From: a virus | Taxonomy: Duplodnaviria > Heunggongvirae > Uroviricota > Caudoviricetes | Reading direction: 5' to 3' (one strand) | IMG/VR virus record: IMGVR_UViG_2548876950_000014 | DNA: 4,183 nt | In this document: in pieces, positions 1 to 4,183 of the stretch | Position numbering within the stretch: position 1 is the first letter of the stretch | How the letters are laid out: each line of letters begins with the position of its first letter | Notes under the pieces: model-generated | What the model saw: the letters and a program-made list of their open reading frames with translations, nothing else | Database searches by the model: none | What the model was told of the DNA's origin: nothing | Program-made: the position numbers and the translations under genes

Positions 1-1413
1 CGTGCTCAACAGGGGGATCTTTTCACCGCTTGTGCCAAGTTCTCTTAAACCAAGGTATTGGATAACGGCTAGTGTGCTTGTTTTAGCCAGAATATCGCGA
101 CCGACTGACGTTAAATCAGTCTGCGCTACCGTATCCTTACCGGTGAAATAAGGCAGTTTGTTTGCACCAGTCGCAAGGCCAGCGAGCGCGGTTAAAGTTG
201 CATCCAGAGGCTGTTTGCCTGCCAGCGCATTTGTCATTGTTGTCGCAAAGTTCGGGTCATTGCCAAGTGCTGCGGCAAGCTCATTCAGGGTATCAAGAGC
301 TTCTGGTGATGAACCAACCAATGCGGATATGGCAGCTCTTACATAAGCGGTCGTAGCAATCTGCGTGTTATTCGTACCCTGTGCGGCGGTCGGCGCAGTA
401 GGGACACCCGTTAATGCAGGGCTTGCCAAAGGCGCTTTGAGAGCCAGGGCATTGTTGATAGTTGTGCTGAAATTCGGGTCGTTATTGATCGCAGCCGCTA
501 TTTCTTTCAGCGTATCCAGTGTGCCAGGCGCACCGTTGATAAGTGCAGTTATAGCTGCCTTAACAAAGGCTGTATTTGCGATCTGCGTGCTGTTTGTACC
601 TTGCGCTGCCGTCGGCGCGGTTGGCATTCCTGTCAGACTCGGGCTTTCTATTGGCGCTTTGGTATCAGCAAGATCTTTTACAGACTTAACGGCTTTAGGG
701 GTCGCCGCCATTGTTTCGCTGTCGCTGTTAGTTTCGCTACTGAGCTGAACTAATCCCTTTTGCGTTGTGCTTGCATCCTGCGCCGTATACTTGCTTTTTG
801 CCAGATCGTAGGCTTTTTTAACCGCCAGCGAACTTGCCGCAACATCACTTCTGGTACTGGTTACAGAGTCTGAAATATCAATGCCGATCGTGCGGTTAAT
901 ACGCTCGGATGTATCAATCATCTCCTGGGTAATGGCAGATACGCCAGCAGGGATATTCACCGTACAAACAAGCAGTTCCCCATCTCCCAACTGATATGAA
1001 TCGGTATAGGTTCTGGTAACAAATTCAGCCGCATGAATATGTGACGCTGTATTAACCTGATAGGTATCCTCTCCAAGGAGATATCTTCCCTTCAGCACAA
1101 TTGCATATTTCTTACCTGCGCTAAGTGCAAGAGAAATATCCTTACGATGCTGAATAGTTACCTGGTAGAATTCACCAATATCAACTGACGCAGCGCCAGC
1201 AGTTTTATCACCATCCACTGAGGTGATTAACAGGTTCATCCCACCGCCAGGCTTAGGTAAGAAACCGGCATAAAATCCCGGGTCAACAATCCCCCTGAAT
1301 TTTCGGTTTAGCGCGGCTGACAGATATGGTTCGTGGTATTGCACATCAGCCACCAGAGCCAACGACTCGGGTGATGGGTAAGTAACCGATGTAACAACTG
1401 TAACGTCATTCAT
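1..1413 (-). CDS. phage tail fiber protein, N-terminal 471 codons; gene continues past the window start (C-terminus not in window)
   Basis: Manual minus-strand translation in the frame ending at 1413 (ATG = revcomp of 1411..1413) has no stop codon down to position 1 and begins MNDVTVVTSVTYPSPESLALVADVQYHEPYLSAALNRKFRGIVDPGFYAGF. It is absent from the ORF track, apparently because it has no stop inside the window. It contains TQKGLVQLSSETNSDSETMAATPKAVK, SPALTGVPTAPTAAQGTNNTQIATTAYV, ALDTLNELAAALGNDPNFATTMTNALAGKQPLDATLTALAGLATGANKLPYFTG and VGRDILAK, which match from memory the conserved shaft motifs of P2 gpH and lambda Stf. AAGGA Shine-Dalgarno lies 8 nt upstream of the ATG. Confidence 0.9.
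   Translation of the reverse strand, partial: MNDVTVVTSVTYPSPESLALVADVQYHEPYLSAALNRKFRGIVDPGFYAGFLPKPGGGMNLLITSVDGDKTAGAASVDIGEFYQVTIQHRKDISLALSAGKKYAIVLKGRYLLGEDTYQVNTASHIHAAEFVTRTYTDSYQLGDGELLVCTVNIPAGVSAITQEMIDTSERINRTIGIDISDSVTSTRSDVAASSLAVKKAYDLAKSKYTAQDASTTQKGLVQLSSETNSDSETMAATPKAVKSVKDLADTKAPIESPSLTGMPTAPTAAQGTNSTQIANTAFVKAAITALINGAPGTLDTLKEIAAAINNDPNFSTTINNALALKAPLASPALTGVPTAPTAAQGTNNTQIATTAYVRAAISALVGSSPEALDTLNELAAALGNDPNFATTMTNALAGKQPLDATLTALAGLATGANKLPYFTGKDTVAQTDLTSVGRDILAKTSTLAVIQYLGLRELGTSGEKIPLLST
217..660 (-). repeat. in-frame tandem duplication inside the tail fiber gene, 2 units of 222 bp (74 codons each; units 217..438 and 439..660)
   Basis: Peptide unit B KAPIESPSLTGMPTAPTAAQGTNSTQIANTAFVKAAITALINGAPGTLDTLKEIAAAINNDPNFSTTINNALAL is followed directly by unit A KAPLASPALTGVPTAPTAAQGTNNTQIATTAYVRAAISALVGSSPEALDTLNELAAALGNDPNFATTMTNALAG. 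At nucleotide level the plus-strand string atctgcgtg recurs at 359 and 581, exactly 222 nt apart, with about 40 nt of near-identity after it and divergence elsewhere. The segment after unit A (KQPLDATLTALAGL) looks like a degenerate start of a third unit. Confidence 0.85.
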
Positions 1414-1421
1414 CAAGCATA

Positions 1422-1426
1422 TCCTT
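1422..1426 (-). promoter_or_regulatory. Shine-Dalgarno (AAGGA) for the tail fiber gene, overlapping the TAA stop of the upstream 144-aa gene
   Basis: Minus strand reads gcaTAAGGAtatgcttgATG; the TAA stop of the 1425..1859 gene forms part of TAAGGA, 8 nt before the fiber ATG at 1413. Confidence 0.5.
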
Positions 1427-1859
1427 ATGCTGTAGTCGTGTTTATGGCCATAACTGCGGTATATGTTTTGCCCACATACAGCGAGTCTTCCTGGACACAA
1501 ATAATGGCGATTGGCTTGTTCTCGTTATCCAGTACAACCAGAGTGTTGAATGGGTAGTTTTTCCCTTCCTGCAACTGGCTTTGATCAAGGTCCATTCGGA
1601 CAGTAATTATCCCACCTGAGTAGGTTGGCACGAGGTTGATGGTGCAAAATTGACTGGTTAGTTCTGCCAGATCGAAAGCCTTTGGCAGTTCTCCAATCTC
1701 ATAAGTGCCATCTCCTTTCTTAGTAACCAGCGAACTGGTTCCGAAAACGGCCTTGCTGATTAAAAATCGAGAGCCTTTGTTAATGGACGATTCAGCGCGC
1801 CGCTGATAGTAATAGTCCAACAACTGACTCTTATAGAGGTTTGTTGAGACGTCAGACAT
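1425..1859 (-). CDS. hypothetical phage structural protein, 144 aa, immediately upstream of the tail fiber gene; possible baseplate or fiber-attachment component
   Basis: Complete ORF in the track (MSDVSTNLYKSQLLDYYYQRR...). It is co-oriented and 11 nt from the fiber start, with its stop inside the fiber SD. ATG at 1859 is preceded by a weak GGGAA SD-like motif (ttaGGGAAaatcATG). It sits between baseplate and fiber genes. No family recognised by eye. Confidence 0.7.
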   Translation of the reverse strand: MSDVSTNLYKSQLLDYYYQRRAESSINKGSRFLISKAVFGTSSLVTKKGDGTYEIGELPKAFDLAELTSQFCTINLVPTYSGGIITVRMDLDQSQLQEGKNYPFNTLVVLDNENKPIAIICVQEDSLYVGKTYTAVMAINTTTA

Positions 1860-1910
1860 GATTTTCCCTAATCAATGTTGTGAAGCCTCATTGTAAGATA
1901 AGTAACTTGT

Positions 1911-1933
1911 CACCCCGCCCTGCGGACGGGGTG
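1911..1933 (-). terminator. GC-rich stem-loop just downstream of the stop of the 278-aa gene, in the only sizeable intergenic gap (1860..1937); possible attenuator or mRNA-stability hairpin, not a canonical intrinsic terminator
   Basis: Plus strand caccccg (1911..1917) is the exact reverse complement of cggggtg (1927..1933). On the minus-strand RNA, CACCCCGUCCGCAGGGCGGGGUG can form about 10 bp (7 Watson-Crick, 1 G-U, 2 inner G-C) around a 3-nt loop. The downstream sequence ACAAGUUACUUAUCUUAC is U-containing but not a clean U-tract. Confidence 0.3.
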
Positions 1934-1937
1934 ATTG

Positions 1938-2774
1938 TCAGGCATCGCTATCCAGCAGCAAATCATCTGCGCGGGTGCGATCAAACGTAGGCGTCGATTT
2001 CACAATAGTGCCGCCCGGCGTTGCAGTGATCGGGGCGCTAATCGAGGTAACTCCAGTAAGCGAAATTGTATCCGAAGTTTCAAACCAGCAGTACGCTTTT
2101 TCGGTATCAGAAATCTCGTTCAAAGTGATCATGTCGGCGTGTTCATTTACAACAACCGACAAATAGAGCGTAAGCCCATCAAACACTATATGCAGTGGCA
2201 GTAGAGGCTTTACGAACTGATTAAACTTTCTGAGAATTTCTTCTGTAATTGCGGACTGATCTATCGTGCCAGTAATACCCATTGTCCGGGCCAGGTCGTT
2301 TATGGGAATACTGATCATCCCTCTGGAAGTCAGAAACATCTCGCCGAATGTGCCGCCGGTAGTCTCCAATGTGCTTTCTGGTATTAGAACTGTGCCATAG
2401 GGATGACGCTCAAGGTCCACCGGTGCATATATCGGATCCCATAAAACAGAAATACCGTTAAATTCGCGGTAAATTGTCTGGTTTATAGGACGTTCAGTTC
2501 CCTTAAAGTGGATCTCATCAAGCCGCTGTTGTAACAACATCGGAACGGAAGATGAGTTCGAGGTTCTGATAGTAAAGAACTGGCCAAGTTCATTTGTCCT
2601 GGTCTCCAGATCCTCCTTGCTCATGGAGAAAATAGACTTCCGGTTGGTAATTCGCTCCAACCATGGGTCAACAAAGGTGTCCATCATTGACTGAATCAAA
2701 TCAGCCAATGATTTATAGAGCAATGACTTTTGCTTAGCTGATGTAAGCCGGTTATTAAACCAGGAACGCTGCAT
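1938..2774 (-). CDS. hypothetical phage baseplate or tail protein, 278 aa, translationally coupled to the upstream baseplate J-like gene
   Basis: ORF track gives 1938..2777 (279 aa, MMQRSWF...), but codon 2775..2777 is GTG only 1 nt after the AGGAGG run. The ATG at 2774..2772 sits 4 nt after AGGAGG and shares its A with the TGA stop of the upstream gene (TGATG), so I place the start at 2774. Position between a J-like wedge gene and the fiber suggests a wedge or fiber-attachment role. No family recognised by eye. Confidence 0.75.
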   Translation of the reverse strand: MQRSWFNNRLTSAKQKSLLYKSLADLIQSMMDTFVDPWLERITNRKSIFSMSKEDLETRTNELGQFFTIRTSNSSSVPMLLQQRLDEIHFKGTERPINQTIYREFNGISVLWDPIYAPVDLERHPYGTVLIPESTLETTGGTFGEMFLTSRGMISIPINDLARTMGITGTIDQSAITEEILRKFNQFVKPLLPLHIVFDGLTLYLSVVVNEHADMITLNEISDTEKAYCWFETSDTISLTGVTSISAPITATPGGTIVKSTPTFDRTRADDLLLDSDA

Positions 2775-4183
2775 CACTCCTCCTCATACGAAATATTAAA
2801 GGTGGAGTTTTCTGTATCCAGATAAACGAAATCGTAAAAGCCGTTGGACTCATTCCACTCGACAAATTCCAGATAAAAGTCGCGGAAATAACCCAGCGTT
2901 TCGATAAACGCCCAAACGTCTTTTTTCTTAATCAGGATGTACTTCCCGACGCGGTTCGGATCAAAGAAAGTTGAGTCGCGCCCAAATTTTGTTTCCAGTG
3001 CCGACTTCAGCTCATCGGTCACATTCTCAATGGTCAGGCTTGCCGATATCCGTCCGGTGATGGTTATCTTAAATGGTAGTTTTCTGACCTCTTTATACGA
3101 GAATTTCTTGTTCAACTCATTCGGCACCTTCTTAAAGGCAGCCAGGATCATTTCTTCAAGCTCTGACTGGCTTTTATTTGGATGCCACCCTGAAATAAAT
3201 ATCTTATTGATATTCCGAACATTATAAGCACCATCTAATTTCTCTTGCTGGCCTTCGCCCCATGCCTTTACCCAGGACAGTCCCGGGATGTTACGCACCA
3301 GAAAATACGTATAGTCCCCGCCCCATACGACCTGATCATCATAGGCAAGGTAATATTGTGCACGGTTACGTGTGATCTCCGTTGTTTCGGCATCGGTACC
3401 TGCGGTTATAGGTGTCGTTGTCTTAACTGAAATCAAATTAGCTAAATTAGCCGCAGAATCGACAGGCGTCAGGTTTTGGCCAGCAACCAGGGTTATATCG
3501 CCGTTGGTGCACCATACCTTAAGCGTAATGGTCGAGCCTTCTGGCGGTATTTGCCCAATTAGCCCATCACCGAATCGAACCCCCAACTGCTCGGATGGTT
3601 TATAAAACTCAACGTAGACCTGGCTTTTACTACCGGCTAACCGGAACATAGTGCTGGAAGACCACTGCGTGGTCTTACCATCGGTCGTCACGAATACTTC
3701 CAGCTTATAGCAGACAGCAGTGAGAGCCTTTGATAACACGACTTCCAGAAATTCTTTGGCTGCCGTAACGGTATATGTCACCTCCTGGATTTCCAACTGT
3801 GCCACTTCTACCGTACCGGTGCCGTCAACCAACCTGCATACATCCATAGTCATGTAAGGATACTGGTCGTCAGATATTAAAGGCATGTTTTTGGGGATTA
3901 CCGCTGGGGCATCTTCACTTGTGGCGGTGATCTCAATCATCCCCGATGACGGTGTTGGCTTGGTACCAACGTAACTATTCGTTTCTGCCGCTGCCAGGAT
4001 AGAAGAACGCCGCGTCGCGGTCGATATAAAGCCTTCAGCCAGCGCCGCATCGGCATACTGAAAGCACCTGTAGACAATCTGGGTAATAAACAATGTCAGC
4101 ATCGAGACAAATTGAGAGCCGACAAACTTGAACCGCCCCGGGTTTCCTGGAGAGTGTTTTATCTGTGAACTCAGGCTGCCAGA
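2774..4183 (-). CDS. baseplate J-like wedge protein (T4 gp6 / P2 gpJ / Mu gp47-type); probably 5'-partial, reading frame open to the window end
   Basis: ORF track reports 2774..4102 (442 aa from the first in-window ATG). Translating upstream of 4102 in frame (…SGSLSSQIKHSPGNPGRFKFVGSQFVS-MLTLF…) gives no stop up to 4183, and there is no SD before the 4102 ATG (caatttgtctcgATG). The segment AGTDAETTEITRNRAQYYLAYDDQVVWGGDYTYFLVRNIPGLSWVKAWG resembles from memory the Baseplate_J signature (acidic A-E-T/S-D-E block, then R.R, then GG..Y and PGV/L). Only about 25 residues precede the FISTATRR region where J-family proteins usually have more, which also suggests the true start is upstream. Confidence 0.75.
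   Translation of the reverse strand, partial: SGSLSSQIKHSPGNPGRFKFVGSQFVSMLTLFITQIVYRCFQYADAALAEGFISTATRRSSILAAAETNSYVGTKPTPSSGMIEITATSEDAPAVIPKNMPLISDDQYPYMTMDVCRLVDGTGTVEVAQLEIQEVTYTVTAAKEFLEVVLSKALTAVCYKLEVFVTTDGKTTQWSSSTMFRLAGSKSQVYVEFYKPSEQLGVRFGDGLIGQIPPEGSTITLKVWCTNGDITLVAGQNLTPVDSAANLANLISVKTTTPITAGTDAETTEITRNRAQYYLAYDDQVVWGGDYTYFLVRNIPGLSWVKAWGEGQQEKLDGAYNVRNINKIFISGWHPNKSQSELEEMILAAFKKVPNELNKKFSYKEVRKLPFKITITGRISASLTIENVTDELKSALETKFGRDSTFFDPNRVGKYILIKKKDVWAFIETLGYFRDFYLEFVEWNESNGFYDFVYLDTENSTFNISYEEE
2779..2784 (-). promoter_or_regulatory. Shine-Dalgarno (AGGAGG) for the 278-aa gene, embedded in the final Glu codons of the upstream gene
   Basis: Minus strand reads tat GAG GAG GAG TGA TG: the C-terminal YEEE codons of the J-like protein spell GAGGAGGAG, 4 nt upstream of the ATG at 2774. 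Confidence 0.55.

Follow-up and report, generated by a model that had tools for sequence, protein, structure and literature searches.

The 78 nt that separate gene 16 from gene R in this P1-like sequence (positions 1860 to 1937, between the TGA of gene 16 and the ATG of gene R, minus strand) mark the boundary between two late transcription units, and they hold a stable stem-loop that, on balance, is probably a 3'-end structure of the upstream pmgC-16 unit, where it would act as an exonuclease barrier and at most as a leaky terminator. The original prediction had the position and length of the gap right but placed it inside a single coupled operon; instead, the unit of promoter LPsit (pmgC to 16) here meets that of promoter LPs (R-S-U). 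The gap, the stem-loop and LPs are already known and annotated as features of phage P1, the stem-loop since 1989: GenBank M25470 (P1 tail-fibre operon) lists a 'stem_loop 506..530, putative' that maps exactly to 1934-1910. The P1 stem-loop of M25470 together with the Ps/LPs promoter of M81956 and AF234172 is the same element as the one described here.

Across 4,129 bases, the window, by which we mean the whole 4,183-nt stretch that was analysed, is 97-99% identical to phages P1, P7, RCS47 and SJ46 and also to hundreds of P1-like E. coli plasmids; on sequence its source is a P1-like phage-plasmid. Gene names were taken from the detailed P1 annotation AF234172 (a window coordinate equals the coordinate of locus L001 minus 1500), and the features are collected in Table 1. 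The minus strand carries all of the long open reading frames. The 278-aa product is 98.6% identical to P1 gp16, gene 16 itself differing from that of P1 by a few changes of synonymous type, and the gene R product is 99-100% identical to gpR of P1 and P7. The neighbouring junctions are tight, as had been predicted: bplA shares 1 nt with 16, and 11 nt lie between R and S. Homology to P1 ends at 4129, and the last 54 nt match the end of IS1203 in NZ_CP049847 exactly. This IS1203-type insertion, which the window has in addition to what is found in P1, interrupts bplA about 25 codons past the P1 start and leaves a 442-aa open reading frame as the truncated remainder; a P1-like element with bplA interrupted in this way is probably defective for baseplate assembly. 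The insertion sits within the upstream transcription unit and is no part of the hairpin finding.

Table 1. Features of the window, and hairpins of P1 and related lineages compared with its stem-loop (window coordinates unless a record or locus is named)
Feature	Coordinates	Strand or position	Basis or remark
Gene S, 5' constant (Sc) part, tail fibre	1..1413, runs off window	-	P1 annotation
Gene R, 144 aa, tail-fibre structure or assembly, first gene of LPs unit	1425..1859	-	ORF and P1 annotation
Gene R ATG	1859-1857	-	ORF
Putative Shine-Dalgarno of R, AGGGA, 5 nt before ATG	1865..1869	-	From sequence
LPs/Ps transcription start, an A, 22 nt 5' of R ATG	1881	-	M81956
LPs -10 box TACAAT	1890..1895	-	Annotated in P1 records
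LPs -22 box AAGTTACTT, 9-bp inverted repeat, described as Lpa recognition element	1900..1908	-	AF234172, M81956
Stem-loop	1910..1934	-	5' arm 1934-1924, loop GCA 1923-1921, 3' arm 1920-1910
Gene 16 stop TGA	1938-1940	-	ORF
Gene 16, 278 aa, baseplate or tail-tube protein, last gene of upstream late unit	1938..2774	-	
bplA, baseplate J-like, 5'-truncated by IS element	2774..4129	-	P1 annotation
IS3-family IS1203/IS629-type element, terminal 54 nt	4130..4183	.	Inserted in bplA
P1 hairpins without U-tract	AF234172 nt 57040-57022, 54587-54564, 10463-10444 (loci L003/L004)	sense	After 23, 21, darB
Junction hairpins overlapping -10 box or predicted start	L088 1430-1500; L145-L149; L109-L141; L154	5' of R homologue	JK004, G52, L154 lineages

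On the sense strand the gap and its borders read TGA-CAA-(UCACCCCGUCC-GCA-GGGCGGGGUGA)-C-AAGUUACUU-AUCU-UACAAU-GAGGCUUC-A..., followed by AGGGAAAAUC-AUG, the stem-loop being enclosed in parentheses. A GC-rich stem-loop had been proposed to follow closely on the stop codon of the 278-aa gene, and one is found on the transcribed strand beginning 3 nt past that stop, with 11 pairs (10 Watson-Crick and one U.G) closing a loop of 3 nt. The roughly 50 nt after it are AT-richer, also as proposed (34% GC, versus 76% in the stem-loop and 47% in the window). RNA folding of the minus-strand transcript gave a stable structure: the stem-loop alone has a predicted energy of -20.4 kcal/mol as sense RNA and -16.9 kcal/mol as antisense RNA, the sense RNA being the more stable because of the U.G pair, and a 101-nt context folds at -30.4 kcal/mol (z = -2.5). 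No hairpin of the window is more stable than that at 1910-1934; when the whole 4.2-kb window was shuffled 100 times with dinucleotides preserved, only two shuffles gave a hairpin at -20 kcal/mol or better on either strand, and in the 94.8-kb P1 genome the stem-loop is one of the three or four hairpins of lowest energy. Rfam covariance models yielded no match in or near 1860-1937 at E-values up to 10. A second hairpin was noted at 2683-2712 on the minus strand, within gene 16 (AT-rich, 11 bp, 8-nt loop, -15.6 kcal/mol); it belongs to coding sequence shared with P1 (39140-39111), and no function is suggested for it.

The AT-rich 50 nt correspond to LPs (= Ps), the Lpa-dependent late promoter known from P1. 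Late promoters of P1 have the form of a 9-bp inverted-repeat -22 box (consensus similar to AAGTGACTT) located 4 nt before a TANNNT -10 hexamer, and the sequence AAGTTACTT-ATCT-TACAAT at 1908-1890 is that of the annotated P1 LPs. The stem-loop, -22 box, -10 box and 5' untranslated region are base-for-base the same as in P1; the 3-nt spacer between stop and stem has a one-base change (C here, T in P1). The feature at nt 559 of M81956 is described as 'transcription start from Ps phage-specific late promoter' (R begins at nt 581 of that record), and the start site in the window was transferred from this annotated P1 start by sequence identity. Because the annotated start falls within the gap, the gap separates two transcription units: upstream is the 8-kb LPsit unit, pmgC-tub-pmgB-sit-pmgA-bplA-16, and downstream are the tail-fibre genes R-S-U, which by P1 annotation form an Lpa-dependent unit of their own, known classically as the tail-fibre operon. 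A consensus scan of the window found no sigma-70 promoter. Relative to the LPs start, the stem-loop lies at -29 to -53; as the start is 29 nt downstream of the stem-loop, the main R-S-U mRNA is without it. The suggestion that the hairpin sets how strongly wedge genes are expressed relative to fibre genes therefore needs revision: this ratio is set firstly by the separate promoter LPs, and read-through RNA is all that the hairpin can modulate.

The stem-loop resembles a canonical intrinsic terminator in its GC-rich stem (11 bp, with the energy given above), its short loop and its location at the end of a transcription unit, and differs in that no U-tract follows the stem, an absence already remarked in the original prediction: the tail is CAAGUUACUUAUCUU. 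The consensus terminator scan used a U-run threshold of at least 5 T in the 8 nt directly after the stem; the tail sequence entered in this test, CAAGTTACTT, falls short of it, and the stem-loop at 1910-1934 was not called in the scan of the window. GenBank records of the P1 genome have no annotated terminators at all.

Among the functions that had been put forward, those that best suit the hairpin itself, which is stable, on the transcribed strand and without a U-tract, are a partial terminator and an RNA-stability element. The stem-loop would be present only in RNA arriving from the LPsit unit, and would form the 3'-terminal structure there: after cleavage in the downstream AU-rich sequence, trimming by 3'-to-5' exonucleases would be halted at the stem, and the outcome would be a stable baseplate message ending just past gene 16. 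As a terminator or pause it would be weak and leaky at most. Poor release of RNA polymerase is expected because there is no U-tract. As the stem begins 3 nt past the stop codon, its 5' arm would be covered by any ribosome that terminates on gene 16, and transcription termination would be lowered further when translation closely trails transcription; in E. coli, hairpins near a stop codon that lack a U-tract are poor intrinsic terminators. Expression of the fibre genes would be governed by LPs, to which read-through would add a variable share.

Stem-loops that stabilise the 3' ends of upstream cistrons within operons, such as the REP sequence between malE and malF of E. coli, impede 3' exonucleases and so increase the amount of message from the cistron before them. 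The stem-loop of the window is like that of malE-malF in being a stable sense-strand structure without a U-tract located just past a cistron, and it is kept in relatives, as a stabilising stem would be; an exonuclease block is expected here by analogy. It is unlike REP in being single-copy and no member of the REP family, and in having a promoter between it and the next cistron. A query with 40 nt of the stem-loop matched 467 records and 465 of 5,426 E. coli genomes, with a median of one place per genome rather than the dispersed copies of REP or BIME elements; plasmids carry 462 of the places and chromosomes carry 10. Against the reading as a 3'-end barrier stands the JK004 clade of related phages, in which there is no hairpin at that position; the stem-loop is dispensable in that position because this clade has none. 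RNA-seq values for P1vir at 30 min are similar on the two sides of the gap, 10.97 for 16 and 11.24 for R, but these are gene-level log fold changes versus uninfected cells and not abundances. In a CRISPRi essentiality map of P1 the genes 16, R, S and U are without exception essential, so that polarity across the gap is unreadable from it.

Conservation was assessed in a P1-clade sample of 131 loci from IMG/VR, metagenomes and GenBank, which form 21 haplotypes over a 171-nt region and 16 over the 57-nt stretch used for a formal pair count. The stem-loop is kept in all 131 loci, and 98.3% of the cells in the count over 16 haplotypes are paired. All three loop positions vary (GCA, GTA, ATA and GCC were found). 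The nine upper pairs have undergone two changes, both of which keep the pairing (C to U, giving U.G; U to C, converting U.G to C-G), and the basal two pairs show one change that leaves a wobble (C to U) and, in two haplotypes, a loss of pairing (C to A; TC to CA). Two stem positions have C to U with a resulting U.G, in L076 and L248. All three pair-preserving changes above the basal pair are one-sided, the 3' arm being invariant in the 131 loci; no compensatory double change was found among the 16 haplotypes, and a shuffle control of the pair count is uninformative because the 3' arm never varies. This variation fits selection for a sense-strand RNA stem but is no proof of it, the clade being very shallow: its sequences are at least ~95% identical (relatives returned by DNA searches were all at 94.8% identity or above), and a contig scan added three close relatives.

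The 60 nt upstream of each of the 11 annotated P1 late promoters were compared. A strong hairpin is located upstream of LPs only (-23 kcal/mol for the 60-mer); the small canonical terminator of lpa lies upstream of LPpac, and the other nine promoters have no hairpin in their upstream 60 nt. A role of the stem-loop in recognition by Lpa was rejected, given its absence at 10 of the 11 promoters. Roadblock-assisted termination by Lpa or RNA polymerase at LPs was likewise rejected, because a complex on -27 to +20 would halt an incoming polymerase before the stem (-29 to -53) had been fully transcribed. A separate observation concerns the -22 box: (T)GAC or AAC is found directly 5' of the annotated 9 bp at 10 of the 11 P1 late promoters and in the JK004 clade, and at LPs the end of the 3' arm of the stem-loop provides the (T)GAC (1909-1913). 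The Lpa recognition element may be longer than the annotated 9 bp.

Similar hairpins, GC-rich and without a U-tract, also follow the P1 late genes 23 (major capsid), 21 and darB in short sense-strand gaps, such that P1 has at least four at the ends of late cistrons. The likeness of these three to the stem-loop of the window extends to the short gap and the T-poor tail, their GC-rich stems having 7-8 pairs in our scan; the differences are that their sequences are unrelated and that no annotated late promoter lies next to them. Their repeated occurrence suggests that hairpins without a U-tract are a recurrent 3'-end or stability device of P1 late operons.

Protein searches with gpR and gp16 identified four further lineages that retain the order of gene 16 and R. 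The D6 clade (43-45% protein identity) possesses a hairpin, TTCTTCCCCC-GCATTT-GGGGGAAGAA, that is unrelated in sequence to that of P1 and likewise begins 3 nt past the gene 16 stop. Hairpin energies in this clade are -14 to -21 kcal/mol, and pairing is kept in loop variants and in variants with an extended stem top (CCCCCTG-CGC-CAGGGGG; CCCCCG-GGCGTG-CGGGGG). Across the clade (L092-L106), a perfect 10-bp palindrome has the loop GCATTT in some contigs and AAATGC in others; by this reversal the hairpin is flipped whole, as expected of recombination or template switching between its arms. After the D6 hairpin comes the motif AAATCACAAACT-GAG-CATACT, copies of which stand at the same spacing ahead of lydA, portal, ddrB, pmgB and darB in D6. 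In phage D6 (L276) the motif takes the form AAAT(C/A)ACA-N3-CT-N3-TAnnCT, unlike the P1 -22 box AAGTGACTT, and is unannotated in the D6 record; it is probably a D6-type late promoter.

In the JK004 clade the gene 16 stop abuts TGAC-AAGCGACTT-CCCA-TAAAAT, a late promoter of P1 type, and no hairpin was found from that stop to the -22 box; a long hairpin, CCATAAAATCAGAC...GTCTGATTTTATGG, is located farther on, with the -10 box in its 5' arm. The G52 clade has the D6-type promoter motif, 2 nt, and then GGCCTCT...AGAGGC plus T6 adjoining the ATG, a canonical terminator whose 3' arm includes the ribosome-binding site (Shine-Dalgarno). In L154, an AU-rich hairpin of 10 bp begins within the -10 box. 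U-runs follow the stem in JK004 and G52. When the P1 spacing of 9 nt from -10 box to start was applied to JK004, G52 and L154, promoter-derived RNA was predicted to begin in or past the 5' arm, so that in all five lineages the complete hairpin would occur only in RNA from upstream. Tentatively, the junction of gene 16 and R in P1-like phages may follow a common design, a late promoter combined with a hairpin that folds only in upstream-derived RNA, although we regard such a rule as doubtful. In P1 and D6 the hairpin lies wholly upstream of the promoter, and in JK004, G52 and L154 its 5' arm overlaps the -10 box or the predicted start; in these three, RNA from the promoter would escape without the 5' arm, and read-through RNA would fold the full stem.

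Several other explanations of the stem-loop can be weighed against a 3'-end barrier. An efficient intrinsic terminator would end most LPsit transcripts, insulate LPs fully and prevent promoter occlusion, as might be expected of a strong stem that stands right where an 8-kb unit ends and immediately precedes a promoter; the hairpins of JK004, G52 and L154 at the same junction, two of them with U-runs, also speak for it. We nevertheless consider it unlikely in P1, given that the tail (CAAGUUACUU) contains no U-tract and has a weighted T-tail score of 0.32, versus 3.4-5.5 for canonical P1 terminators elsewhere in the genome, that a terminating ribosome would interfere with a stem starting 3 nt past the stop, and that such hairpins are generally poor at termination in E. 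coli. The two remaining functions named in the original prediction, a translational attenuator of the 144-aa gene and an RNA-processing site for RNase III, draw on the sense-strand location of the hairpin 50 nt before the R start, and both are very improbable. Attenuation is largely refuted by the start of LPs at 1881, downstream of the hairpin, which leaves the main R mRNA without it, and the minimum-free-energy fold has no pairing between the hairpin and the ribosome-binding site of R. An RNase III site needs a duplex of about two helical turns (~20 bp), and the 11-bp stem is about half of that length.

Two further explanations dispense with a function in RNA. The stem-loop might be a DNA-level part of LPs, where Lpa or RNA polymerase makes an upstream contact or where a cruciform forms (-29 to -53) and adjusts the strength of the promoter: its 3' arm, invariant across the 131 loci, ends in TGA and is followed by C, thereby forming the (T)GAC/AAC seen 5' of nearly all P1 -22 boxes. 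This is improbable, however, as ten other P1 late promoters work without a hairpin and the JK004 clade retains TGAC and the -22 box without one; moreover, the U.G pairs correspond to T.G or A.C mismatches in DNA, and the asymmetry in stability favours the sense RNA. Alternatively, the stem-loop may have no present function and be a neutral palindrome in a very young and near-clonal clade. It could derive from an old terminator, for instance, or from a small insertion. The identity of at least ~95% among P1-clade sequences, the lack of compensatory change, the absence of the hairpin from JK004 and the occurrence of the D6 loop in both orientations, which points to palindrome dynamics, are all consistent with neutrality. 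Neutrality is nonetheless rather unlikely, since the nine upper pairs always keep their pairing while the loop varies freely, an unrelated hairpin occupies the same position in D6, and similar hairpins are found after several other P1 late genes. A 3'-end structure that would shield the pmgC-16 message remains the explanation that we favour.

Apart from correct annotation the finding has little importance: in P1-type phage-plasmids an operon boundary is marked by a terminator-like stem-loop and, after it, LPs. The role of hairpins without U-tracts at the ends of P1 late cistrons bears on the ratios of P1 structural proteins. The comparative hairpin pattern offers a modest clue to the insulation of internal promoters in phages; if the common design were true, it would amount to a compact, promoter-embedded terminator acting on read-through transcripts only.
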